64,000 bases of DNA from Dehalococcoidia bacterium. Lineage in GTDB: Bacteria > Chloroflexota > Dehalococcoidia > Lucifugimonadales > GCA-002694895. This document shows positions 7,265 to 60,834 of the stretch, in pieces. Under the pieces are notes generated by a model that was given only the letters and a program-made list of their open reading frames with translations, did no database searches and was not told the DNA's origin. The stretch covers positions 20,423 to 84,422 of the forward strand of contig JAPYRX010000004.1 in assembly GCA_029936815.1 (NCBI GenBank). Reading direction: 5' to 3'. The translations under genes and the position numbers were made by a program. Positions within the stretch are counted from its first letter, which is position 1, and each line of letters begins with the position of its first letter.

Positions 7265-7891
7265 TCAATTGTTCAATATTTCGTTAAATTTATTCAATGA
7301 ATCTATAGGGTTTTGTGATTTAATTATTGCAGAAACAACACATATTGAATCAGCTCCTGAATCTATCACAGATGAAGCGTTATCAATATTTATTCCACCT
7401 ATGCCAACAATTGGAATATCAGATAATTTGTGAGCTTCTTTAATCAGATTTAACCCTACAATATTTCTATCTAATTTACCCATTGTGCTTGTTTCAAAAA
7501 CTTTACCTATAGCCATATAATTTACTCCTTGAGTAATTGAAGCATTGATTTCATTAATATTATTATTTGAAGTTCCAATTATTTGATTTGTATTCATTAT
7601 TGTCTTGCAGTATTCAATTGAATTATCATTTTGTCCAATATGGACTCCATCTGCTTTTACTTCTTTGGCTAAAATTGGAGAATCATTAACGATAAATGTA
7701 ATATTATATTTATCACATATTAATTTAATATTTTTAGATATAGTCACTTTATCTTCGAAATTATTTTTCTTATCTCTATATTGGATTATACTTATGCCTG
7801 ATTTTGCTAGGTCAGAGCATAATTTAAATATATTATTTGTTTCACCAGGGTCAACAATTGTATAAATCCCTTTTATTATTTTATCATTCAT
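7265..7891 (-). CDS. thiE: Thiamine-phosphate synthase
   Basis: 208 aa with TIM-barrel ThiE patterns (IIQYRDK, ADGVHIGQND, VGIGGI). It ends in TGA. Its start overlaps rnhB by 8 nt. Confidence 0.85.
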   Translation of the reverse strand: MNDKIIKGIYTIVDPGETNNIFKLCSDLAKSGISIIQYRDKKNNFEDKVTISKNIKLICDKYNITFIVNDSPILAKEVKADGVHIGQNDNSIEYCKTIMNTNQIIGTSNNNINEINASITQGVNYMAIGKVFETSTMGKLDRNIVGLNLIKEAHKLSDIPIVGIGGINIDNASSVIDSGADSICVVSAIIKSQNPIDSLNKFNEILNN

Positions 7892-12021: not shown

Positions 12022-12690
12022 ATGAATAATTTGTTATATATCCAAGACACCGAAGTGTTAATTTGCAATCTTGATTCGAATAATGACTCTAAACAAGATA
12101 TAGTTATTTTTCTTCATGGATTTGGTGCTAATAAAGAAGATTTAACATTTGTAAATACAATGCATCCATTTAAAAATACTATTAATATTTTCCCTCAAGG
12201 TTTTATAAAACTAAACAATCCTTATTCTAGTAATTCATATGGTTGGGGAAATTATTCTAACCAAGATAATAAAGAATATTGTGATGAAATGTCCTTAAGT
12301 GCTAAAAAAATCAAATTACTAATTGATGATTTGATATCTACAAACCAAAATCTTGAGAACAAACAAATTTCAATTGTTGGTTTTTCACAAGGCGGCATGA
12401 TTGCTCAATTACTTGCTTTCAAACATTTTTCAAATATTAACAACTTAATTTTATTATCTACAACACTACCTCCTACTACAAAAAATCATTCTCTAAATAC
12501 ATATATTAATAAAATTTTTATTGGGCACGGGATTCATGATGATATTATAAAGATCTCTTCTGCTGACGAAATTTATGAGTTATATAAAAAACATAATTAT
12601 AATATTGATTTAATTAAATATAATATTAATCATACTATTGATATTAAATTATTTGAAGATTTATCAACTTATATATTTAAAAGAGATTGA
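12022..12690 (+). CDS. Alpha/beta hydrolase, phospholipase/carboxylesterase family
   Basis: VIFLHGFGANKEDL, the nucleophile elbow GFSQGG, and a late GHGIHDD..I motif are present. It ends in TGA. Confidence 0.7.
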   Translation: MNNLLYIQDTEVLICNLDSNNDSKQDIVIFLHGFGANKEDLTFVNTMHPFKNTINIFPQGFIKLNNPYSSNSYGWGNYSNQDNKEYCDEMSLSAKKIKLLIDDLISTNQNLENKQISIVGFSQGGMIAQLLAFKHFSNINNLILLSTTLPPTTKNHSLNTYINKIFIGHGIHDDIIKISSADEIYELYKKHNYNIDLIKYNINHTIDIKLFEDLSTYIFKRD

Positions 12691-13421: not shown

Positions 13422-14459
13422 ATGAAAGCTGGTATCTATAACGGATCTAACATTGAATTAAAAGAAATTGTTCAACCAAAATTAGAAAAACCTGATGATG
13501 TTTTGATTGAAGTAAAGACAACCGGAATTTGCGGAAGTGATTTGCGAATATTACATGGAATTGATGAACCTCAAGTTTTACCTATTGGACATGAATTATC
13601 AGGATTGGTTGTTGAAGTAAATGATTCTAGATTTGAAAATTTACTAGGAAAAAAAGTTGCTGTTGATACTGTTTCAGCCGGAAAAGCTTGTGGTACTTGC
13701 CGACATTGCATGAATGGGCAATACACTTACTGTATAAATAAAGATCTTGATTCGGGAGGAGCGTATGCAGAATATATAAAAAGAAGAGTAAAAGGCTGTT
13801 TTGAAATTAGAGATGATATGAATTTTGATGATGGTGCTTTAGTTGAACCATTAGCAGTTGCAGTTCATGCTTTACGTAAACTTAGCCCTTCTATAGGTGA
13901 CAATTTACTTATTTTAGGTTCAGGAACCATTGGCTTGATGTGCTTATATGTCTCTAGACAAATGAATTTTAATAAAATTTTTATTACCTCCAAATATAAA
14001 CATCAAAAAAATATGGCAAATTATTTAGGAGCAGATTATATATTGGATTATAAGGATCCGGATATTCATGACATTATATTATCAAATACTGATGGATATG
14101 GATTTGATATGTCTTTAGAAACTGTTGGATCTTATTCGTCTCAAATTCAAACATTGACTGACGCAGTTCAGATGACAAAAAATGGGGGGAAAATTGGAGT
14201 TGTTGGAGGATTTAGAGTTCCAGTTGAATTTGACTTTTTAGTACCCTATATGAAAGGTCAATCATTGATTTTTCCTATATGTTACAATCTTTCAGAAAAC
14301 AAACATGATTTTGAGGTCGCTATAAATTTATATAATAAAACTAACATAGATATCTCAAAACTTGTAACCAAAACTTTTAAATTCAATGATATAGAAAATG
14401 CTTTTAATTATGTTGTGAACGAACGAGAAGAAGCAATTAAAGTACACTTGAAAAAATAA
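13422..14459 (+). CDS. Zinc-dependent alcohol/polyol dehydrogenase (MDR family; threonine/sorbitol dehydrogenase-like)
   Basis: GICGSDL and GHELSG carry the catalytic Zn ligands. CGTCRHCMNGQYTYC is the structural Zn site. GSGTIGL is the Rossmann motif. Confidence 0.85.
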   Translation: MKAGIYNGSNIELKEIVQPKLEKPDDVLIEVKTTGICGSDLRILHGIDEPQVLPIGHELSGLVVEVNDSRFENLLGKKVAVDTVSAGKACGTCRHCMNGQYTYCINKDLDSGGAYAEYIKRRVKGCFEIRDDMNFDDGALVEPLAVAVHALRKLSPSIGDNLLILGSGTIGLMCLYVSRQMNFNKIFITSKYKHQKNMANYLGADYILDYKDPDIHDIILSNTDGYGFDMSLETVGSYSSQIQTLTDAVQMTKNGGKIGVVGGFRVPVEFDFLVPYMKGQSLIFPICYNLSENKHDFEVAINLYNKTNIDISKLVTKTFKFNDIENAFNYVVNEREEAIKVHLKK

Positions 14460-45101: not shown

Positions 45102-46328
45102 ATGAATGAGTCTATAATAAAATCCAAATTATCTAAATCAGCTTTAAATATTGGAGCCGGATCTCCAACGGATGCTGGTTTAAGTTTTAAAGGGAATTCA
45201 TCTCATACTAATCCTATACAACTCGCAGGTGGTATTCCAGATGAACCAAGTTTACCCATCAATGAATTTACAAATATGTTAAATATTGCTTCTAAAGAAC
45301 AATCTGCAGGAAGTTACAACTATGGTGGTTGGCTTGGATACGAAGGTCTTAGAGAAAATCTGGCTGTAAGGCAATCTAAATTTGACAAAAAAAATCTAAC
45401 TCTTGAAAATTTTATAATTCATAACGGAAGTTCTGGTGCATTAGAAAATGTTTGTAGAACTTTATTAGATCCTGATGATGTTGTTATTGTAGAACAACCA
45501 TCTTACTCTGGAACTGTTCGTGCTATACGAGGATTTAATTGCGATGTTGTAGAAGTTGAAATGGATGAAAATGGAATTGATATAGCTAAATTAAAACTAA
45601 CAATTGAAGATTTGAAAATCAAAGGTAAAAATATCAAATTTATTTATACAATCCCAGATTTTCATAATCCAACAGGCTTTTTAACTTCTGATGAAGTTAA
45701 AAATGAATTATGCAATATTGCCGAAAAAGAAGACATATTATTAGTAGAAGATGCAACATATTCTGAAATATATTTTGAAGACAAACAACCAACTCCTCTT
45801 TTTTCTTTAGACAACAATGACAGAGTTATCAAATTGGGAACTTTTAGTAAGATAATATCAACTGGGATTAGAGTAGGGTGGATTCAAGCACATAAGGATT
45901 TAATAAAAGCATTTTCTATCACAAGATTTGATATGGGTAATAGTCCTTTAATTCAGAGAGCACTTAGTTTATATATGTCCGAAGGTTTTATAGATCCACA
46001 CGTTGATATTGTTAGAAATATATATAAAAAGAAAATGGAAACACTAACGTCTAATTTAATTAAAAATTGTGAACCATATGTTGAATTTTACAAACCTAAA
46101 GGTGGCTTTTTTCTTTGGGTACGAATTAAAGGTGTTTCAAACAAAGAATTAACAAAAGAAGCATCTATAGACGGAGTATTGTTTCCTACAGGATCTTTGT
46201 TTTATGCTGACAGAGATGAATCAAAATGGACAACTCATGTAAGAATGGCATTTAGCAAATCTTCTGTTGATGAACTTGTTGAATCTACAGAAAGATTGAA
46301 AGATACTTTTTTAAGAATTGTAGATTGA
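45102..46328 (+). CDS. Class I/II PLP aminotransferase (2-aminoadipate/aromatic aminotransferase-like, MocR-type catalytic domain without HTH)
   Basis: The PLP lysine motif is TFSKIISTGIRVGW. IPDFHNPTG and the C-terminal RMAFS are present. The ATG at 45102 is preferred over the TTG at 45078. It ends in TGA. Confidence 0.8.
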   Translation: MNESIIKSKLSKSALNIGAGSPTDAGLSFKGNSSHTNPIQLAGGIPDEPSLPINEFTNMLNIASKEQSAGSYNYGGWLGYEGLRENLAVRQSKFDKKNLTLENFIIHNGSSGALENVCRTLLDPDDVVIVEQPSYSGTVRAIRGFNCDVVEVEMDENGIDIAKLKLTIEDLKIKGKNIKFIYTIPDFHNPTGFLTSDEVKNELCNIAEKEDILLVEDATYSEIYFEDKQPTPLFSLDNNDRVIKLGTFSKIISTGIRVGWIQAHKDLIKAFSITRFDMGNSPLIQRALSLYMSEGFIDPHVDIVRNIYKKKMETLTSNLIKNCEPYVEFYKPKGGFFLWVRIKGVSNKELTKEASIDGVLFPTGSLFYADRDESKWTTHVRMAFSKSSVDELVESTERLKDTFLRIVD

Positions 46329-46330
46329 AA

Positions 46331-47439
46331 TTAATTTGGAAATATAATAATTCCTCTTCCATCTTGTCCTTTAATTAAATCATCAAACACTTTGTTGATT
46401 TAATCTAATTTATATGTTCTTTCTATTAAACCTCTTATATCTATTTCACCTTTTTGATAATGTTTGATTACTTGATTAAAGCTTTCATGTGGTGAAATAG
46501 AACTATAAAAACTTCCGACTAATGTTTTTTGATTCCTGCATAAATCAATCATATCAACATTTACAGTATCTCCTGTTGATGATAAACCTACTATTACAGT
46601 TGTATCTTTTCGTTTTGTTGAATTTATTGCTTGATTAGTGACAGTCCCTCTTCCAAATGTATCTAGTGCCATATCTGCACCAGTATCTGTGATTTTTTTG
46701 ATTTCTTCTATTGGGTCCACTTTTGAAGAATTTATAGAATGTGTTGCACCGAATTTCATTGCGAATTCTAATTTGTGATCCATTATATCTACAGCTATAA
46801 TTTTATTGCTGTTTAATATTTTCGCACCCATTATTGCACTTAGTCCAACACCTCCTAATCCAAAAACAACGATATCAAGACCTGGTTTAGAAATTTCCTG
46901 ATTAATTACAGCACCAGTAGAAACACAACAGCCAATAAGAGCAGCTACATCTAAAGGAATATCGTCTGGAATTTTATATAATGACTGCTGTGGACAAATA
47001 AGATATTCAGAAAACAATCCCAATTTTTGCATTTGATGAATTTGTTCTTTATTATTATTTAATCTTAGTGTTCCATCATACTGTTTTGCCCCCAAATTTA
47101 AACTTGTTGTACATAAATTAATGTAACCACTAAGGCAATAAGTACAATTATTACAATCTGATATAAATGCGCAAATAACTCTGTCGCCTGGTATGAAATC
47201 AATTACTTCTGGACCATTGATTCCACAATTCCTGAACCATCATGATCTAATACAACGGGCATTGGCATAGGAAGATCTCCAACCATATAATGTAAATCGG
47301 ATGCACAAATTCCTGCTACGGAAACTTTAATTCGCACTTCATCATGTTTTGGTTCTTCCTGATTTAGAGTTTCTATTTGTAGAGGTTCATTAGATTTATA
47401 AAGAATAGCTGATTTTGTCTGGAACATATTAATCTGCAA
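46331..47439 (-). pseudogene. Zn-dependent alcohol dehydrogenase (class III/MDR-like) inactivated by a 1-nt deletion and an in-frame TAA
   Basis: Frame A reads ...GICASDLHYM...VLDHDGSGIVESMVQK-stop (stop at 47205..47203). Frame B continues G-PEVIDFIPGDRVICAFISDCNNCTYCLSGYINLC...VFGLGGVGLS...ERTYKLD. A TAA at 46402..46400 is followed in frame by INKVFDDLIKGQDGRGIIIFPN-stop (46333..46331). Repairing one base gives a 369-codon ADH. Confidence 0.75.
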
Positions 47440-50902: not shown

Positions 50903-51556
50903 ATGAATAATACAATTAAAGTGATTTTAACTAGTTTTGAACCATTTGGAAAATACAAATATAATCCTACAATTTCAGTAATGAATAACGTTCAATCATT
51001 TTTTGAAAACTCTGCAAATATCCAAATAACAACTAATATATTACAATGTAAATATTCAACTATTAAGAACGAAGTATATGATATATATATGGATAATCCT
51101 GACATTATTATTAGCTTAGGATTACGTGCTAATACTTCTTATTTAAATTTGGAATCCATTGCGCAAAATGAGTATAGCTCGATCACTCCTGACAATGATG
51201 GAATAACATTAAGCGGAAATAAGATAATAAATTCTAGTGAAAATTTAATCAGTACTTTAGATTTGGATAAATTACAAATATTGTCAGATAAATATGTTGA
51301 TTCTATTGTTTCAAAGAATGCAGGTAAATTTATGTGTAATGCAAATTTTTTTTGGAATCAATATAAACTTAACTCGGATAAAATAACTACTAAATATTTA
51401 TTTATTCATATCCCATTCACTGATAAATATATTGATTTAGAGCAAGAAATATCTAATAATAATTTACCTGTATTAAAAGAAGACAATATTGTACAGTCAA
51501 TAATTTCAATTATTAAAAATTTATCCAAAAGTGAGGAGAACAAACTTGAAATTTAA
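50903..51556 (+). CDS. pcp: Pyroglutamyl-peptidase I (C15)
   Basis: The N-terminus is VILTSFEPFG. The catalytic Cys context is AGKFMCN and the His context is LFIHIP. Confidence 0.8.
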   Translation: MNNTIKVILTSFEPFGKYKYNPTISVMNNVQSFFENSANIQITTNILQCKYSTIKNEVYDIYMDNPDIIISLGLRANTSYLNLESIAQNEYSSITPDNDGITLSGNKIINSSENLISTLDLDKLQILSDKYVDSIVSKNAGKFMCNANFFWNQYKLNSDKITTKYLFIHIPFTDKYIDLEQEISNNNLPVLKEDNIVQSIISIIKNLSKSEENKLEI

Positions 51557-53147
51557 TTCTAGAAGATCAAATGTATTATCTACACGTGGAACTGTAGCAA
51601 CTAGCCAACCTTTAGCAGCAGAAGCTGGAGCAAATATATTACGTAAAGGAGGTACAGCGGCCGATGCCGCCGTAGCCGCTGCAGCTGTTTTGAATGTTGT
51701 TGAACCAATGTCAACAGGGATAGGAGGAGATGTATTTGCATTATATTACCAGGCATCGGATAAAAAAATGTATGCTTTAAATTCAAGTGGACGAGCTCCA
51801 CAAAAAGCTGATCCTGAACAATTGATCAACATGGGATATGACAAAATTCCTCCTACATCTCCGTTTTCTGTATCCATACCAGGTGCAGTAATGGGTTGGG
51901 ATGAAATTGTAAACAAGTTTGGAAAATTGGATTTAAAAACAATAATTGAACCTGCATATGATTATGCTTCGAATGGCTTTCCTGTTAGTGAAGTAATTGC
52001 TGATGGGTGGAAATCTTCTACATCGAAAATTAAAGAAGACCCCAACTACCCTGAATTTCTAAATCCTGATGCTCCAAAATTCGGATCAATAAAAAAATTA
52101 CCCAATTTAGCAAATTCTTTGAAATTAATAATGGATAATGGCGTAGATGGTTTTTACAAGAGTGATATTGCAACTAAAATTTCAAGTCATATTCAAAAAC
52201 TCGGCGGTTGGATAGAAAAAAGTGATATCGAGAATCATAAGGCAGATTGGGTAGAACCTATAAATACGAATTATAGGGGACATACTGTGTGGCAATGCCC
52301 GCCAAACACCTGGGGATTAGTGGTACTGATGGCTTTAAATATATATGAAGGATTTTCAAAATCTGAAATTGGTGATCCAACAAAAGAATTACATTTGAAA
52401 ATCGAAACTATAAAAGCAGCATTTTCAGATGGATTATTTAATATTACGGATTTTGATGTTACTAAAAATGTTTTACCAAATTTATTATCCGATGAATATG
52501 CTAAAAATAAACGTGAACAAATCAACCATAATAAAGCTATAAGTTATGAACCAACAATCAGAGTTGATTCTAATAACACTGTATATATAACAACAGCAGA
52601 TAAATACGGAAATGCTTGTTCATTTATAAATAGTTTGTACATGGGATTTGGATCTGGAATTGTGGTTCCAAAAACCGGAATCGCTTTACAAAATAGAGGT
52701 GCCGGTTTTAGTTTAGATAAAAATCATCCGAATTACTTAGCTCCTAACAAACGTCCATTCCATACATTAATTCCTGGAATGGTAACAAAGAATGGTGAAT
52801 TAAAATATTCATATGGAGTTATGGGTGGAATGCAACAAGCGCAGGGACACTTTCAGGTTCTATCTAATCTCATAGATAAAAATCTCACACCACAAGAAGC
52901 TTTAAATGAACCTAGATTTAGTGTTGTACCATGGGATGATGATGAAAAAGATCAAAAAAAAGACTCAGTATTATTAGAAAGTATTTTTGATACTAAAGTT
53001 CTTTCACAAATTAAAAATTATGGACATAACATCATAATAAATGACCCATCACCAATGTTTGGAGGTGGTCAAGTTATTGAAATAAATGGTAAGATGATGA
53101 TAGCTGGATCTGAGCCTAGAAAAGATGGTCAGGCTGTAGGATTATAA
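51546..53147 (+). CDS. ggt: Gamma-glutamyltransferase-family Ntn hydrolase, no signal peptide (paralog 1)
   Basis: TVATSQPLAAEAGANILRKGGTAADAAVAAAAVLNVVEPMSTGIGGD, a Thr-rich autoprocessing region (NNTVYITTAD), and GVMGG are present. I prefer the TTG at 51546, 7 nt after GAGGAG. The track start is the GTG at 51531. Confidence 0.85.
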   Translation: MKFNSRRSNVLSTRGTVATSQPLAAEAGANILRKGGTAADAAVAAAAVLNVVEPMSTGIGGDVFALYYQASDKKMYALNSSGRAPQKADPEQLINMGYDKIPPTSPFSVSIPGAVMGWDEIVNKFGKLDLKTIIEPAYDYASNGFPVSEVIADGWKSSTSKIKEDPNYPEFLNPDAPKFGSIKKLPNLANSLKLIMDNGVDGFYKSDIATKISSHIQKLGGWIEKSDIENHKADWVEPINTNYRGHTVWQCPPNTWGLVVLMALNIYEGFSKSEIGDPTKELHLKIETIKAAFSDGLFNITDFDVTKNVLPNLLSDEYAKNKREQINHNKAISYEPTIRVDSNNTVYITTADKYGNACSFINSLYMGFGSGIVVPKTGIALQNRGAGFSLDKNHPNYLAPNKRPFHTLIPGMVTKNGELKYSYGVMGGMQQAQGHFQVLSNLIDKNLTPQEALNEPRFSVVPWDDDEKDQKKDSVLLESIFDTKVLSQIKNYGHNIIINDPSPMFGGGQVIEINGKMMIAGSEPRKDGQAVGL

Positions 53148-53172: not shown

Positions 53173-56100
53173 ATGCAAAATCAAATAAAAGAACAAATTG
53201 TAAATAATCTTAACTGGAGAAATATTGGCCCTCCAAGAGGTGGTAGAACTGTAGCCGTTGCTGGGCATCCGACAAATATTAATGAATATTATTTTGGAGC
53301 ATGTGCAGGTGGCGTTTGGAAAACTGAGGATACAGGATTGAGTTGGAAAAATGTATCAGATGGATTTTTGAATACATCTTCTATTGGAGCTATAGCAATA
53401 GCTGAATCGGATCCAAATGTTATTTATGTTGGAACAGGAGAAGCATGTATTCGTGGAAACGTATCTCCTGGAGATGGTGTATATAAATCAACTGACGCTG
53501 GTAGAACATGGAGCCATGTTGGATTAACTGAAACTAAACATATATCAAGAGTTAGAATTGATCCTACAGATCACAATATTGTTTATGTTGCAGCACTTGG
53601 ACATGCTTTCGGTCCAAATGAAGAACGTGGAATATATAAATCGATTGATGGTGGCGAAAACTGGGAACATGTTTTATTTGTTAGTAAAGGAGCTGGAGCT
53701 GCTGACTTATCAATGGATACTGGTAATCCAAGAATATTAATTGCAACAATTTGGGAAGCACAAAGAACTTTTTGGAATTTAGAAAGTGGTGGCCCTGATT
53801 CCGGTATTTATATAACATTTGACGGTGGTGAAAACTGGGAAAACATTACCAAAAATCCTGGGTTACCTGATGGATTAAAAGGTAGAATGGGAGTTTCTAT
53901 TTCACCTGCTAAAGAAGGAAGAATGTGGGCTACTTTAGAATCTGAAATAGACACCGGAGTTTATAGAACTGAAGATTACGGTAAAACTTGGAACTTAGTT
54001 TCTGATAACCAAGATTTACAAGGCAGACCTTGGTATTATCAACATATTTTTGCTGATCCCTCAGATGAAAATACTGTATGGATTATGAATTATAGTTGTT
54101 TTAAATCGACTGACGGTGGAAAAACTTTTGAATTAGTAAATACACCACACGGTGATAACCATGATATATGGATAGATCCTAGTGATAGTAATCGTTTAAT
54201 TCAAGGTAATGACGGTGGCGCAAACGTATCATTAAATGGTGGGAATACTTGGTCATCAATATATAATCAAAAAACAGCACAATTTTATCATGTGCATACA
54301 GACAATCAATTCCCATATAGAGTCTATGGTACACAACAAGATAACTCAGCCATAAGCGTCCCATACAGAACTGAAAAAGGAGCAATAACTTGGGCTGATT
54401 GTTATATTACGGGGACATCAGAAAGTGGATATATTGTAACTGATCCTAATGATCCTAATATTGTTTATTCTGGCGCTATCGGAAGTTCTCCAGGTGGTGG
54501 CGGAAATATGTTGAGATATGACCATTCCACGGGGCAAGTTAGGATAGTAACAGTATGGCCTGTTGCTAATACAGGGAAAGGAGCTGATTCAATGAAATAT
54601 AGATTTCAATGGACATATCCCATCCAATTTTCACCTCATGATTCTAAGACTTTGTATGTTGCTGGTAATGTTGTGTTCAAATCAACAAACGAAGGGCAAA
54701 CATGGGAAGAAATTAGCCCAGATTTAACCAGAAATGACAAAACAAAACAAACTGTTTCAGGAGGTAAAATTACCAAAGATACTTCTGCGGCAGAAACTTA
54801 TTGTACTATATATTCATTTTTAGAGTCACCTCACGTAAAGGGATTAATGTGGGCTGGTAGTGATGATGGATTAATTCATATATCTACAGATAATGCAGCA
54901 AATTGGTCAAATGTTACTCCTAAAGATTTTCCTGAATGGGCTAGAGTTCATATGATTGAACTTTCACCGCATGATAAATCAACAGCTTATATTGCTGCGA
55001 CCAAAAATATGTTAGATGATTACAGGCCAATTTTGTATAAAACTACCGATAATGGTAATTCGTGGACAAGAATTGATAAATCATTCCCAACTGATGAAAT
55101 TACAAGGGCAATTAGAGTAGATAAAAACGATCCGAATATCTTGTACGTTGGAACTGAAACAGGTTTGTATGTTTCATTTGATGATGGTTCTAATTGGACT
55201 AAAATCAATTCGAATTTACCAGTAGTACCGATTTACGACATTGATATTAAAGATAGTAATATGATTTTAGCCACGCATGGAAGAGCATTTTGGATTCTAG
55301 ATGATATTTCAGCCATATCACAATTAAACAATGATATACATGATAAAAATTTCATATTAGACCCTGCTCCAACTTTCAGAATTCTACCTCCTTTTGGCTT
55401 TAGATTATTTGGAACTGGTCCAGATAATGGTAAATCTTATATGGCATCATTGGGTTCTCCTGTTTTGATTGAAAAATCAAAAGATCCTTCTGGCGAAATT
55501 AAAACAGAATATTTAGATTCGGGTGAAAATCCTCCTATGGGAGTAACAATAAGTTTCTATCTTGATAATAAACCTGAAAGTGCTGAATTAATTATTAAAG
55601 ATACAGATGGTGAAATAATAAGAACATTTAATACTGAAGAAATTGAAGTTAAAGAAACAAATGTAGTCAAAGCTTCTCTCCCATCAAAATCTACTTCTGT
55701 ATTAAAGGTTAACAAAGGATATAATAAATTCTTGTGGGATATGTATAGTGAATCACCTTATAAGTTAGAAGGTGAGAAACTCACAGCAGGACTATCCGGG
55801 CCAATGGTTGTACCTGGTAATTATAATGTAGAATTACAAATTACTAATAAATCTAAAACTACAACACTTAATACCTCTGTAAAACTTTTGAAAGATCCAA
55901 GAGTTTCAGCTACAGAGAATGATTTTGATGCTCAATATTCATTATTACAAAAAGTTAATGATAAGATTTCAGAATTACATAAGTCTGTAGAAACAATACG
56001 GAAAAACCAAACTGAAATTTCTGACTGGATATCTAGATCTGATAATTCAAGTAATTATGAAGAAATCAATGAAATTGGTACAAATTTAATTACTAAATTA

Positions 56101-56376
56101 AATGAAATTGAGAAACTACTTGTATTCACAGATTATAAAGGCGCAAGAGATAGATTAAATAATCCAGTTGTATTAAATGTCAAACTTGCCAGTCTTATTC
56201 CCGTAATTGACAGCGCAGACTTTAAACCTACAGATCAATCTTATGGTGTATATACTGAAGTTAGCGAAGAAATTGATCAACAACTTGATAAACTAAAATC
56301 TATGCAGGAATCTGACTTAGTAGACTTTCAAGATTTAGTTTCTAAAAATAATATTCCAGGACTAAAAAGCTTGTAA
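53173..56376 (+). CDS. Large BNR/Asp-box repeat protein with sortilin/VPS10-like double propeller (often annotated 'glycosyl hydrolase, BNR repeat')
   Basis: 1067 aa with at least 10 Asp-box motifs (S/T-x-D-x-G-x-T/N-W): STDAGRTW, SIDGGENW, TFDGGENW, TEDYGKTW, STDGGKTF, STNEGQTW, TTDNGNSW, SFDDGSNW and others. No N-terminal signal peptide is seen. Confidence 0.8.
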   Translation: MQNQIKEQIVNNLNWRNIGPPRGGRTVAVAGHPTNINEYYFGACAGGVWKTEDTGLSWKNVSDGFLNTSSIGAIAIAESDPNVIYVGTGEACIRGNVSPGDGVYKSTDAGRTWSHVGLTETKHISRVRIDPTDHNIVYVAALGHAFGPNEERGIYKSIDGGENWEHVLFVSKGAGAADLSMDTGNPRILIATIWEAQRTFWNLESGGPDSGIYITFDGGENWENITKNPGLPDGLKGRMGVSISPAKEGRMWATLESEIDTGVYRTEDYGKTWNLVSDNQDLQGRPWYYQHIFADPSDENTVWIMNYSCFKSTDGGKTFELVNTPHGDNHDIWIDPSDSNRLIQGNDGGANVSLNGGNTWSSIYNQKTAQFYHVHTDNQFPYRVYGTQQDNSAISVPYRTEKGAITWADCYITGTSESGYIVTDPNDPNIVYSGAIGSSPGGGGNMLRYDHSTGQVRIVTVWPVANTGKGADSMKYRFQWTYPIQFSPHDSKTLYVAGNVVFKSTNEGQTWEEISPDLTRNDKTKQTVSGGKITKDTSAAETYCTIYSFLESPHVKGLMWAGSDDGLIHISTDNAANWSNVTPKDFPEWARVHMIELSPHDKSTAYIAATKNMLDDYRPILYKTTDNGNSWTRIDKSFPTDEITRAIRVDKNDPNILYVGTETGLYVSFDDGSNWTKINSNLPVVPIYDIDIKDSNMILATHGRAFWILDDISAISQLNNDIHDKNFILDPAPTFRILPPFGFRLFGTGPDNGKSYMASLGSPVLIEKSKDPSGEIKTEYLDSGENPPMGVTISFYLDNKPESAELIIKDTDGEIIRTFNTEEIEVKETNVVKASLPSKSTSVLKVNKGYNKFLWDMYSESPYKLEGEKLTAGLSGPMVVPGNYNVELQITNKSKTTTLNTSVKLLKDPRVSATENDFDAQYSLLQKVNDKISELHKSVETIRKNQTEISDWISRSDNSSNYEEINEIGTNLITKLNEIEKLLVFTDYKGARDRLNNPVVLNVKLASLIPVIDSADFKPTDQSYGVYTEVSEEIDQQLDKLKSMQESDLVDFQDLVSKNNIPGLKSL

Positions 56377-56404
56377 TTAAAATTAATTATTAATTAATTT
56401 TAAT
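56376..56404. terminator. 14-bp perfect AT-only inverted repeat between convergent genes (possible bidirectional terminator)
   Basis: attaaaattaatta (56376..89), then t, then taattaattttaat (56391..404). It overlaps the stop codons of the BNR gene (56374..76) and the Trx-like gene (56383..85). Confidence 0.3.
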
Positions 56405-56871
56405 AATTCATTAAGTTGTGGAACTCTGTTCCAACGGTTTATGATTGTACCCTTATGATTTAATAAGAACATACTAGGTACAGATTTATAATTAAATTTT
56501 TCTATAAAGTCAGTTCCTTCATTGGTGCTGATTTCATATTGGATGAAGTTAATAGGATAATTATTAACCGCTATACTTAACTGCTTCACGAGCGGTTTAT
56601 ATGCCATGCAAGCCACTCAGTAATTACTATATAGATATACAATTGTATTATCATATTTATTTAATTCAACTGAAATATAATCATATGATGAATCAGTAAC
56701 TTTGTTTAATTTTGTGTATGATACAAAAGCGATATTCACTATTAATAACGATATTGAGATGAATATAAGAAATTTACTTCTATATAGAAATGAAAATAAA
56801 AATAATGAGATTAAAATCAGTAAAACACAAATTATTAAGCTATTGTAATTTATAATCTGAAATAATTTCAT
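56383..56871 (-). CDS. Membrane-anchored thioredoxin-fold protein with in-frame TGA at the first CxxC position (candidate selenoprotein, U-V-A-C); alternatively a nonsense pseudogene
   Basis: Track ORFs 56617..56916 and 56383..56616 are in the same frame and contiguous, separated only by the TGA at 56619..56617. The joined product reads ...DNTIVYLYSNY-[TGA]-VACMAYKPLVKQL...INFIQYEI...KSVPSMFLL..KGTIINRW. This runs beta1, redox motif, alpha1 and the cis-Pro loop of a Trx fold. The likely start is the ATG at 56871..56869, 1 nt after the GGT stop. Two N-terminal TM helices are predicted. Confidence 0.55.
56566..56597 (-). promoter_or_regulatory. SECIS-like hairpin candidate 19 nt downstream of the in-frame UGA
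   Basis: On the mRNA, AACCGCU (56597..91) pairs perfectly with AGCGGUU (56572..66) around an 18-nt loop, CGUGAAGCAGUUAAGUAU. The loop can add G.U, U-A and G.U pairs. The stem is built from G/C-ending codons (CCG, CTC, GCG) that look rare elsewhere in this window. Confidence 0.35.
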
Positions 56872-56872
56872 A

Positions 56873-58507
56873 TTAAACTTTATATACTGATCCGCCACCT
56901 CTAGGATCACTACCACCGTCTAAAGTGTTATTTTCAGGATTATATGAAACAACTTGCGCTCTAGCCATCATAGGATTATAAGGATAATCTTCTTGTACTA
57001 CATCAAAACCCAAATCAATTAGTTTATCTTTAAAATCAGTTCTGATTCTAGATTCCAAATAAACTTTTCCACTTTCTGTATGTATTCTTGGAGCAGATAC
57101 TGCCTCAGTTGGGCTCATGTCATAGTTAATCATATTTAATAACGATTGAAATACTGCACTCACTATTACAGCGCCTCCTGGTGCACCACATATAATGACC
57201 GGGTTACCTTCTTTTAAAACAATAGTGGGTACCATATTTGATCCTCTGGCTTTTCCTGGAGCTATAGAATTCAAATTTCCTGGTCTAGGATCGGCTAAAT
57301 TCATGCCATTATTATAAATAAAACCTAACCCAGGTGTAATCACACCTGACGCCCAACCCAAAGTATGTGTGATTCCAATCCAGTTACCTTCAGTGTCTAC
57401 TGAATTCACATGTGTTGTATGGCCAGATGATGAATTACCAATTTCAGGTATGATATTATTTCTAATGTCATTAATTTTATTATTAATACGATCCTCATTT
57501 AACACAATTTCATCTACTGGAATATCAACAAATTTAGGATCAGCATTATAATCTAATCTGTCTTGGTGTGATATTGACATAACATTTGCAATAATCTTTA
57601 AATATTCATAAGAAGAATGATTTTTGATTTCGGTTTGAAAAGGTTCAATCAATTTAAACATTTGTAAAACAGACATACCAGTATTTGGTGGAGGAGGAGA
57701 AGAAATTTGATAATTCAAATAATTTGTTATTAATGGATCTACAAAATCAGGTTTAGAATTTTTCAAATCATCTTGTGTTACAAATCCACCATTTTTTTGA
57801 ATATCATTGATAATAATTTTAGACAAATCACCTTCGTAGAATTCTTTCGCGCCGTTTTTTGCAATTATTTCTAGAGTATCTGCGTAATCTTTCATATTAA
57901 TTATTTCACCAGTATCATAAACTGATCCATCAGATTTTAGGTATTTTTCTTTACAACCATCAGATGCAGAAATTCTTTGATAAGTATTCGGCTGAAGTGG
58001 ATTAATATTAGACCTTAATGCGTATCCAGTTTTGAAATATTCACCCAAACGGGAATCTACAGTTAATCCTTTTTTGGCATGTTCTATACTTGGTTGAATT
58101 AATTCAGCCCAAGGCATACTACAATATCTTTTATGAATTTCATTAAATGCAGACAAAGTATTTGGAGTCATTATTGATTTATAACCAATCTCACTTCTGT
58201 AATCATCAAATTGAAATAGATTTGATACATCACTTCTTGTCACTTTATCATTAGCCCACATTTCTTCTGTACATTTACTACCAGCGGTACCAGCAAAATT
58301 AATTGCAATAGTTTTATTTAATTTTTTATCATAAATTTGAGCTATGCCCATTCCTCCTAATCCAGTCATAAAAGGATCTACAATCCATTGCATAAATGCT
58401 ACTGCCAACGCTGCATCAAACGCATTTCCACCCTCTTCGAATATTCTTGCCCCAGCTTCTCCGGCAATTGTTTGAGGGCAGGTGATAATACCTTTGTTGA
58501 CAGACAT
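56873..58507 (-). CDS. ggt: Gamma-glutamyltransferase-family Ntn hydrolase, no signal peptide (paralog 2)
   Basis: TIAGEAGARIFEEGGNAFDAALAVAFMQ...TGLGGMG is present, with the autoprocessing nucleophile region SSGHTTHVNSVD, plus PGGAVI and a C-terminal DPRGGGS. Confidence 0.85.
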   Translation of the reverse strand: MSVNKGIITCPQTIAGEAGARIFEEGGNAFDAALAVAFMQWIVDPFMTGLGGMGIAQIYDKKLNKTIAINFAGTAGSKCTEEMWANDKVTRSDVSNLFQFDDYRSEIGYKSIMTPNTLSAFNEIHKRYCSMPWAELIQPSIEHAKKGLTVDSRLGEYFKTGYALRSNINPLQPNTYQRISASDGCKEKYLKSDGSVYDTGEIINMKDYADTLEIIAKNGAKEFYEGDLSKIIINDIQKNGGFVTQDDLKNSKPDFVDPLITNYLNYQISSPPPPNTGMSVLQMFKLIEPFQTEIKNHSSYEYLKIIANVMSISHQDRLDYNADPKFVDIPVDEIVLNEDRINNKINDIRNNIIPEIGNSSSGHTTHVNSVDTEGNWIGITHTLGWASGVITPGLGFIYNNGMNLADPRPGNLNSIAPGKARGSNMVPTIVLKEGNPVIICGAPGGAVIVSAVFQSLLNMINYDMSPTEAVSAPRIHTESGKVYLESRIRTDFKDKLIDLGFDVVQEDYPYNPMMARAQVVSYNPENNTLDGGSDPRGGGSVYKV

Positions 58508-58539: not shown

Positions 58540-60834
58540 TTATAATGTTTTCTCAATTCTATAAACTAAATTTCTTGTTGAATCTATACTGTCAGGACTA
58601 ACTGATACAGATGTAATACCCCATTTGACTAATTTTTCTGTAAGATCGGGGAAAAAAGAAGGAGCTTGCCCGCATATTGAAGATGTTATACCTTGTTTAT
58701 TAGCTGCTGTAATAACTCTTTCTAAAGCCCACAAGATAGATGGGTCACGTTCATCAAAAGATGATTCTAATCTTTCGTTATCTCTGTCGACACCTAAAGT
58801 TAATTCAGTTAAATCGTTTGATCCTATTGAAACTCCAGTTATGCCTTCATTAATAAATTGATTGATTAAAATAACGTTGGAAGGTATTTCAACCATCATC
58901 CAAATCTTATGTCCTTTGGTTGCTGATATTTCATATCGTTCTAGTATATTCAAAACTTGTCTTAATTCATGAGGTGTTCTTACAAATGGGACCATTATAA
59001 TTAGATTGTCATATTTCTTTAAAACATCCTTAATAGCATTAATTTCCATTTCGAAAACCTCAGGATCGTTTATATATCTTATAGCTCCTCTGTATCCCAT
59101 CATAGGATTACTTTCAACATCTTCAAATTGTTCACCGCCTCTCAAGTTTTTGTATTCATTAGTTTTGAAATCAGTTAATCTGTAGACGACAGGTCTATTC
59201 GCAAAACTTTCGCAAAAAATAGAAATATTATCTGATAATTGTTTAGACCATTCATCAGAGGTATTATTTTTAATTGCATGTTTTGGGTGTTCGCCAATGT
59301 TAGCAATGATAAATTCAGCTCTTAATAATCCAATTCCATCTACATTTCTTTGAGATATTTTTGGCGCTGAGATTGGGTCAGCAAGGTTTACATAAACTTT
59401 AGTATTTGTTGAAAATTGTGATTCTTCAACTACAGGTTTTTCAGGGATTTTAATTATACCTTCATACACATGCCCACTGGTTCCATCTATTGTTACTTCA
59501 TCATTTGAAATAATTTCAGTTGTTGCTGATTTCCCACTTTTAGGATCATAAGTTCCAACAACGCATGGTACTCCTAATTCTCTACTTACTATTGCAGCAT
59601 GGCAAGTACGACCACCTTTATCCGTAATAATACCAGAAACCATTCTCATTATCGGAACAAAATCTGGGGTTGTCATTTCGGTAATTAGAACATCACCTTC
59701 TTTAACTTTATCTAAATCATTAAGATCTTTAATTATTATTGCATTACCAGATCCAAATCCTGGGCTAGCGCCTGATCCTTTTATAATCATTGTTGCATTT
59801 GAAATATCAAGGTTAACTTGGTTAGTATCTAAAACTCCTCGTGAATAATTTGTTACAGGTCTACTTTGTAATAGATATATAATTCCATCTTTTACTGCAA
59901 ATTCTATATCCTGAGGATAATCATAGTGTTCTTCAATTAGTAAACCTTGTTCAGTTAATTTTTTCAAATCATTAATATTAAGTTTTGGTCTAATACTTTC
60001 TTCTGGTGTAAGTGGAATATTAATGTTTTGATTTTCAATATCAGTAGGGAATATGCCTTCATTATTGGTTTCCTCATTAAGAGCGATTTTATAAACCTGT
60101 TGGACATTTTTTTGTCTTAATACAGTTTGTGTAGATTTATCAATAACATAATAATCAGGAGTAACTATGCCAGAAACAACAGCTTCTCCAAGGCCAAAAG
60201 CTGCCTCGATTACAATTTTTTCAGCATCAAGTGTGGTTGGTTCTAAAGTAAACATAACGCCACTCACATCTGGTTGAACCATTGTTTGTATGACTACTGA
60301 CATCCCTGAGTCAAAATGAGGAAGATTTTGACTGTTTCTATAAAAAATTGCCCTAGCTTCAAAAACGGAAGCCCAACAGGATTTAACAGCTTCTAGTAAT
60401 GAAGAGAGTCCAATTATATTTAAATACGTATTTTGTTGCCCGGCAAAAGACGCTTCCATTGAATCTTCAGATGTTGCAGAAGATCGAACAGCTACTCTAG
60501 GTGATCCTAATTCTTTGTAAAATGTTGATATATCTTGTATGACTGTAATGTCAATATCGGCTTTATCGATTAAATTTTTGATTTTGATAGAGGTTTTTTG
60601 TAATTCAGATATTCCCATTTGGTCGGAATTTTCTAAAAAATTTAATATTGTATCTTTCATATTTGCATTATTTATAAAATCAAAATATATATTAGTGCTT
60701 AATGCAAAACCTGGTGGAACATTAATTCCAGATTGGATTAATTCACCTAAATTGGCGGCTTTTCCGCCAAATTCAGAAGTGGAATTAGAATTTAAATTAG
60801 AAAGTTTATTAACAAATAGATTATTGGAACTCAT
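58540..60834 (-). CDS. ppsA: Phosphoenolpyruvate synthase (pyruvate, water dikinase)
   Basis: 764 aa. ATP-grasp elements are FGGKAANLGEL and VAVRSSATSEDS. The phosphohistidine domain is GGRTCHAAIVSRELGVPCVVG. The PEP-utilising TIM barrel is GIGLLRAEF and SIGSNDLTE. Confidence 0.9.
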   Translation of the reverse strand: MSSNNLFVNKLSNLNSNSTSEFGGKAANLGELIQSGINVPPGFALSTNIYFDFINNANMKDTILNFLENSDQMGISELQKTSIKIKNLIDKADIDITVIQDISTFYKELGSPRVAVRSSATSEDSMEASFAGQQNTYLNIIGLSSLLEAVKSCWASVFEARAIFYRNSQNLPHFDSGMSVVIQTMVQPDVSGVMFTLEPTTLDAEKIVIEAAFGLGEAVVSGIVTPDYYVIDKSTQTVLRQKNVQQVYKIALNEETNNEGIFPTDIENQNINIPLTPEESIRPKLNINDLKKLTEQGLLIEEHYDYPQDIEFAVKDGIIYLLQSRPVTNYSRGVLDTNQVNLDISNATMIIKGSGASPGFGSGNAIIIKDLNDLDKVKEGDVLITEMTTPDFVPIMRMVSGIITDKGGRTCHAAIVSRELGVPCVVGTYDPKSGKSATTEIISNDEVTIDGTSGHVYEGIIKIPEKPVVEESQFSTNTKVYVNLADPISAPKISQRNVDGIGLLRAEFIIANIGEHPKHAIKNNTSDEWSKQLSDNISIFCESFANRPVVYRLTDFKTNEYKNLRGGEQFEDVESNPMMGYRGAIRYINDPEVFEMEINAIKDVLKKYDNLIIMVPFVRTPHELRQVLNILERYEISATKGHKIWMMVEIPSNVILINQFINEGITGVSIGSNDLTELTLGVDRDNERLESSFDERDPSILWALERVITAANKQGITSSICGQAPSFFPDLTEKLVKWGITSVSVSPDSIDSTRNLVYRIEKTL

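Follow-up and report, generated by a model that had tools for sequence, protein, structure and literature searches.

A gene on the minus strand of contig JAPYRX010000004.1 from a Dehalococcoidia bacterium (assembly GCA_029936815.1), at 56383..56871 of the 64,000-nucleotide (nt) stretch analysed here (the window), very probably encodes a real, membrane-anchored selenoprotein with a thioredoxin (Trx) fold and a UxxC motif, in which the UGA at codon 85 is decoded as selenocysteine (Sec, U). An earlier note, made from the letters of the DNA, had proposed such a selenoprotein, and this interpretation is now supported by a conserved TGA, cysteine-containing homologs, a covarying hairpin and the absence of a genetic code reassignment. 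The open reading frames (ORFs) 56916..56617 and 56616..56383 abut in the same frame on the minus strand, and the sole separator between them is the TGA at 56619..56617, as had been described; these coordinates were reproduced. Read from the ATG at 56871, the joined frame comprises 84 codons, the TGA, 77 codons and a TAA (56385..56383), giving a product of 162 residues including the predicted Sec. The in-frame TGA (56617..56619, minus strand), which is conserved in orthologs, would provide the first residue of a U-V-A-C motif, and the TGC at 56608..56610 (minus strand) the predicted resolving cysteine, Cys88, which is invariant in all orthologs and aligns to the second Cys of CGPC.

Three relatives returned by a word-indexed protein search were all full length and all had 'W' at the site; the DNA behind each of them has an in-frame stop at this position, indicating that the gene callers had translated short AT-rich contigs under code 4. 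Two collection scans, one of genomes and one of metagenomes, used peptide patterns located outside the TGA site, and the recovery of orthologs was therefore unbiased between TGA and TGY. The genome scan gave three species-representative metagenome-assembled genomes (MAGs) with Chloroflexota/Dehalococcoidia labels and ~30% G+C, and the metagenome scan gave 19 marine contigs with the gene. Alignment showed TGA, not TGY, at the same codon in every one of the 27 orthologous copies, which comprise 25 distinct sequences in three clades at 48-90% amino-acid identity; no other stop or frameshift was found in these copies, which are intact apart from the TGA. Moreover, a gene 100% identical to that of the window, TGA included, is present in six further independent assemblies (JGI, NCBI and Logan).

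A pseudogene, or a sequencing or assembly error that changed TGY or TGG to TGA, might be suspected because the same genome contains a real frameshifted gene, for a zinc alcohol dehydrogenase (46400..47427). However, the identity across independent assemblies and the recurrence of the TGA in 25 distinct sequences, at synonymous divergence (dS) > 1 and with no second lesion, leave this explanation with almost no probability, and the view that the TGA marks neither a decayed gene nor a sequencing error holds. The dehydrogenase gene itself, also on the minus strand, has a frameshift near 47203..47240 and a GHE motif degraded to DHD. Three independent assemblies (L040, L041 and L043) share this lesion and the gene is intact in the relatives L005-L007, so that it looks like a genuine pseudogene in this strain.

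The column occupied by the TGA corresponds to a redox cysteine. Alignment by phmmer against PDB sequences placed YLYSNY[U]VAC opposite VYFWAPWCGPC, which puts the first Cys of the thioredoxin motif in the TGA column. When 1.84 billion representatives were searched exhaustively with a profile, 121 proteins were recovered, many of them ~160 residues long with the same two-helix-plus-Trx architecture; these, together with the three proteins from the word-indexed search, make up the 124 family members in which the column was counted. Cys stands at this column in 85 members, 'W' in 21 and Ser in four. All seven 'W'-called proteins that were examined in DNA (P0001, P0002, P0003, P0008, P0009, P0011 and P0014) have TGA, the last four representing four distant lineages, and the four Cys forms checked in DNA have TGT or TGC. 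As judged from these sequences, the column pattern is the classical signature of a Sec/Cys pair. The placement of the TGA on the first redox Cys of a Trx-fold CxxC, made in the earlier note, is thus borne out by the family counts and by the alignment to PDB thioredoxins. In the wider family, P0028, P0043 and P0070 have Ser at the column (SxxC), and such members are likely redox-inactive or monothiol variants.

The region 3' of the TGA is constrained as protein. The ratio of nonsynonymous to synonymous divergence (dN/dS) lies between 0.07 and 0.3 on either side of the TGA, among orthologs that span dS > 1, and this purifying selection 3' of the TGA indicates that translation continues in frame through the downstream half. 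The codon directly after the TGA is GTG in the window and GCN (Ala) in most orthologs, and the window ATG at codon 89 is not conserved, the orthologs having mostly ACN, ATH or GTN there; a separate start for the downstream half is thus lacking. If translation ended at the TGA, the product would be an 84-residue two-helix membrane peptide, and the thioredoxin part would be either untranslated or a separate small protein. Public callers on long contigs do annotate only a 68-74-residue downstream 'hypothetical protein', and in the window a GTG directly follows the TGA, with an ATG three codons further on. However, neither triplet is conserved as a start, the two halves are under the same purifying selection, the downstream fragment is without beta1 and the first redox residue, and the Cys-containing homologs are single uninterrupted proteins of equal length. 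Termination at codon 85 is thus very unlikely, and the earlier doubt that the downstream half, with its GTG start, could be a separate gene is strengthened by the lack of conservation of the GTG itself.

Elsewhere in the window (29.8% G+C), TGA serves as an ordinary stop. The long ORFs end in TAA (40), TGA (9) or TAG (2); one of the nine ending in TGA is a spurious overlapping ORF, and read-through of any of the eight genuine TGA stops meets the next stop within 0-12 codons. The stops of thiE (7267..7265), the esterase (12688..12690) and the aminotransferase (46326..46328), which had been cited as ordinary TGA stops, were all verified as TGA. Therefore, codes 4 and 25 are excluded. The idea that TGA is a sense codon genome-wide draws on callers that, for short AT-rich contigs, applied code 4 and entered W at the site; it is contradicted not only by the eight genuine stops but also by ORFs of up to 1158 codons that are open under table 11 with TGG for Trp, and an in-frame TGA is absent from all other conserved genes of the window and flanks, so that next to no likelihood is left for it. 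Likewise, a scan of the window and L005-L007 for further split ORFs joined by TGA revealed no second selenoprotein candidate. Each of the eight genuine TGA stops has A or T as its next base; the Sec TGA has G in that position in the window and in every close ortholog, and A or C in certain distant forms.

Downstream of the UGA, we identified a candidate minimal bacterial Sec insertion sequence (SECIS) at 56579..56597 (minus strand), within codons K92-L98. This hairpin begins 19 nt after the UGA and has a 7-base-pair (bp) stem and a 5-nt loop, NGUNN; in the window it reads AACCGCU-CGUGA-AGCAGUU (56597..56579), with one C.A mismatch. RNAalifold recovered it independently from the alignment. In every one of the 20 distinct TGA forms, at least six of the seven pairs form without a shift of register. 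The stems of distant TGA forms are AAGCCUGU/AUAGGCUU, CCUAC/GUAGG and AAAUUCAU/AUGAAUUU; the last, from L039, is of entirely different sequence and keeps the pairing. In the four Cys forms, the corresponding positions give 2/7, 1/7 and 4/7 pairs and one weak 6/7 with a folding energy of 0 kcal/mol.

Covariation was tested on 18 sequences and eight pairs, namely the 7-bp core and one flanking pair. Compensatory double changes were found in six pairs, all within the core, and the covariation score was 0.445, versus 0.133+-0.029 in shuffled alignments (0 of 500 as high) and at most 0.118 when the partners were slid by 1-3 columns. When synonymous codons were resampled according to genome codon usage with the protein fixed, 4.66+-0.22 pairs formed versus 6.58 observed, and none of 2000 resamplings reached the observed value. 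Covariation with the pairing extends to the amino acids, as where Gln CAA faces Leu UUG, or in Phe...Glu-Phe. The synonymous fraction of differences per codon amounts to 0.30 over the hairpin versus 0.23 elsewhere; there is thus no dip, which is uninformative given that the changes in this segment are compensatory rather than absent. Published accounts of bacterial SECIS elements describe a stem-loop that directly follows the UGA on its 3' side and carries a G in its small apical loop (PMC1088965, PMC9312934), and the geometry of the predicted hairpin fits a minimal element of this type.

Folding of single sequences after the UGA gave inconsistent structures whose energy was not significant. 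A second hairpin of 4 bp directly 3' of the UGA (alignment columns 19-22/29-32) is present in close orthologs; by eye it does not seem to be retained in distant TGA forms, and it was therefore not counted in the element.

Several observations weigh against decoding of the UGA as Sec. The hairpin is short and AU-rich, with folding energies of -1.9 to -10.4 kcal/mol across forms and -3.1 in the window. The window hairpin alone is not above chance (fold z-score 0.35), and a descriptor scan of the window gave two matches among 2837 TGA triplets versus 0.96 expected, the second match (13508..13510) being out of frame and at chance level. The significance of the hairpin therefore comes only from comparison with relatives; these sequences are phylogenetically related, so that the shuffle statistics overstate independence, and an invariant Val codon begins with the loop G-U, whose conservation is thus confounded with protein constraint. 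No Rfam family matched the hairpin, either at gathering thresholds or with E values as high as 10. The earlier note had proposed a check with a bacterial SECIS model near the site: a covarying hairpin does lie downstream of the UGA, but neither a match to an Rfam model nor a single-sequence signal above chance accompanies it. Finally, selA, selB, selD and tRNA-Sec were not found in the 64-kb window or the flanks examined; Pfam annotation of ~50 window ORFs revealed no SelA, SelB or SelD, and tRNA scans of the window and 18 loci revealed no tRNA-Sec.

These negative results bear on a further explanation, in which the UGA is recoded to a residue other than Sec. This could take place by near-cognate read-through to Trp, Cys or Arg stimulated by the hairpin, or by means of a SelB-like factor that delivers a Cys-charged tRNA(Sec)-like tRNA, an arrangement found in a few bacteria. 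The conserved TGA, the translated downstream half and the hairpin demand recoding without naming the inserted residue, and the Sec machinery was not found in the window and flanks. On the other hand, the position is that of the nucleophilic Cys in a CxxC motif, where Trp or Arg would abolish redox function, and for Cys a plain TGY, which some relatives use, would serve at no cost. The hairpin with its loop G-U at a fixed distance also fits SelB-dependent decoding. Moreover, Dehalococcoidia are known Sec users, and the class includes MAGs with 46-49 predicted selenoproteins (PMC13326102); the Sec trait exists in the class, which is context and not proof for the lineage studied here. Recoding to a residue other than Sec therefore seems improbable, and decoding as Sec is preferred.

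We hypothesize that the hairpin, through its 7-bp stem and 5-nt loop with G-U at loop positions 2-3, directs SelB-dependent decoding of the UGA. SelB would bind this element and outcompete release factor 2 at codon 85, leading to selenium insertion. By analogy with the chemistry of Trx-fold proteins, the resulting U-x-x-C redox centre would lie at the N-terminus of helix alpha1, where Sec would act as the exposed attacking nucleophile and Cys88 would resolve the intermediate via a selenenylsulfide.

With Cys put at the site, the joined 162-residue protein passes the Pfam Thioredoxin model PF00085 (26.5 bits versus a cut-off of 23.5; residues 69-160). A hydropathy scan and AlphaFold indicate a membrane anchor of two hydrophobic helices, ~residues 10-29 and 33-52 (56716..56844, minus strand), with a short basic loop, YRSK, between them. 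The thioredoxin-fold domain that follows, ~residues 64-162 (56386..56682, minus strand), is supported by Pfam, AlphaFold and Foldseek and contains the cis-Pro loop VPS (Pro132 at 56478..56476), which is conserved in orthologs. The AlphaFold model (mean pLDDT, the predicted local distance difference test, 70.6; 75-84 in the thioredoxin domain) has two N-terminal helices (residues 2-29 and 33-57) and then a beta-alpha-beta-alpha-beta-beta-alpha domain composed of beta1 (75-81), alpha1 (87-102), beta2 (107-113), alpha2 (117-126), beta3 (133-138), beta4 (143-147) and alpha3 (150-161). These elements coincide with the strands and helices that had been assigned by inspection to a read-through product with two transmembrane helices and a Trx fold. 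The best PDB matches in Foldseek are classical thioredoxins (E ~1e-5, TM-score ~0.7 on target). The positive-inside count is 2.1 Lys plus Arg in the inter-helix loop versus 0.8 + 1.4 on the other side, and the topology is ambiguous. The most likely function is that of a membrane-tethered thiol-disulfide oxidoreductase, in which Sec85 would serve as the attacking nucleophile and Cys88 as the resolving residue.

The selenoprotein gene belongs to a co-directional unit on the minus strand. The first gene of this unit encodes a phosphoenolpyruvate synthase-like protein (ppsA, 58540..60834; Pfam, with conserved synteny) and is followed by a gamma-glutamyltransferase (GGT) gene (ggt, 56873..58507; Pfam and NCBIfam), whose adjacency upstream of the selenoprotein gene is conserved in every ortholog locus. 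Only 1 nt lies between the ggt stop (56875..56873) and the selenoprotein ATG, which makes translational coupling likely; the sequence agrees with the earlier description of this spacing and of the ppsA-ggt-trx unit, and the synteny is conserved in ortholog loci. In every clade, the gene order is pepX (opposite strand), ppsA, ggt, the selenoprotein gene, a BNR/sortilin-like gene, a second ggt and pyroglutamyl peptidase, the last three on the opposite strand. Distant Sec forms occur in genomic contexts other than the ggt neighbourhood, and the ggt link is therefore specific to the present lineage.

With regard to the neighbouring genes, the BNR/sortilin-Vps10-like repeat protein (1067 residues, 53173..56376, plus strand) is encoded convergently with the selenoprotein, the two stop codons lying 6 nt apart, and shows 77-80% identity across all clades. 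The selenoprotein diverges faster between clades (48-53% amino-acid identity, L005-L026 versus the window) than its ggt, ppsA and BNR neighbours (70-85%). Two ggt paralogs with ~27% identity, at 51531..53147 (plus strand) and 56873..58507 (minus strand), flank the locus, and no signal peptide is evident in either GGT. Genes for pyroglutamyl peptidase, X-Pro dipeptidyl peptidase and an S9 peptidase lie near the selenoprotein locus, and an M19 dipeptidase gene is located just past the window, as seen in L040; this cluster for peptide and glutathione catabolism around the selenoprotein gene is conserved.

This setting may hint at a functional link between the selenoprotein and the co-transcribed GGT, for example the reduction of glutathione-derived or cysteinyl disulfides. 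A more speculative proposal, to which we give only a small chance, is that the protein is an obligate-Sec, membrane-anchored oxidoreductase with an outward Trx domain that partners the translationally coupled GGT in a conserved cluster for peptide and glutathione salvage of a streamlined ocean bacterium, or else that the minimal AU-rich hairpin drives a non-canonical, SelB-independent or Cys-inserting recoding of the UGA. If the former were true, the protein would be a dedicated selenoenzyme for recovering cysteine or glutathione sulfur.

The gene is a clear case of a real gene mis-annotated in public data, either truncated or under the wrong genetic code. Calls under code 4 place Trp at the Sec codon (L001-L004, L027-L032 and L039; proteins P0001-P0004, P0008-P0011 and others), and calls on long contigs retain only the C-terminal 'hypothetical protein', such as P0125, which equals window residues 89-162. 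A 'W' at the first position of CxxC in metagenome protein sets may thus flag missed selenoproteins. If decoded as predicted, the gene brings a subfamily of membrane-anchored Trx-fold proteins that are obligate-Sec into the selenoproteome of the abundant low-GC marine Chloroflexota and implies a selenium requirement for the lineage. Its putative SECIS, very small and with a stem maintained via coupled amino-acid changes, would be an example of compact dual RNA and protein coding. The understanding of selenoprotein mechanism is unchanged; the protein belongs to an already well-known type.

Comparison with known systems places the candidate element beside the fdhF-type SECIS of E. coli that is bound by SelB. 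Both are hairpins that lie inside the ORF directly 3' of the UGA and have an unpaired G-U in the apical loop. Unlike the fdhF element, in which the loop G-U lies at about +23/+24, the window hairpin is shorter and AU-rich, with its loop G-U at +31/+32 from the U of the UGA, and neither a conserved bulged U nor a conserved lower stem was detected.

At the protein level, the arrangement, with a membrane anchor at the N-terminus and then a CxxC domain of Trx fold, resembles that of TlpA, ResA, CcmG/DsbE and StoA, with weak NCBIfam similarity (11-17 bits versus cut-offs of 123-210 for TlpA, ResA, DsbE and StoA). Unlike these families, which use Cys and not Sec, the window protein has two helices rather than one and a minimal Trx domain without TlpA-type insertions. 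It is likewise distinct from canonical TrxA (TIGR01068), at 21.8-24.9 bits versus the equivalog cut-off of 96.8 and without WCGPC. None of the curated NCBIfam selenoprotein families (e.g., SaoT NF040730, HUIPC NF047660, GOS_C NF045500 and PDO_seleno_TRX TIGR02187) scored above its cut-off; the only matches among these models were sub-threshold, to TIGR02187 (14 bits versus 185) and TsoB (19 bits versus 805).

The closest resemblance is to bacterial Sec-containing Trx and Trx-like UxxC proteins (PF00085/COG0526; e.g., the Treponema denticola Trx and Trx-like 1, 2 and 3). A Sec-containing thioredoxin has been experimentally characterised, according to work cited in PMC13188914. Trx-like UxxC selenoproteins are described as common in marine metagenomes of the Sargasso Sea and the GOS (Global Ocean Sampling) survey (PMC1088965, PMC2398784), and the counts given for GOS place them among the most abundant marine families, with 321 sequences for Trx-like 1 and 212 for Trx-like 3 (PMC2398784). 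The window protein shares with them the Trx fold, predicted Sec in place of the first Cys of CxxC, Cys homologs, a candidate SECIS that falls within the ORF shortly 3' of the UGA and has a G in its small apical loop, and a marine origin. GOS 'Trx-like 3' is listed as a marine UxxC family with a weak cd02950 match and 212 Sec versus 183 Cys forms (PMC2398784), and the window protein may correspond to it, compared by table description only. Unlike the known Trx-like UxxC selenoproteins, the window protein has two N-terminal membrane helices, a Y/F-U-[AV]-[AT]-C active site rather than W-U-G-P-C, and a fixed position after ggt in a low-GC Chloroflexota lineage.

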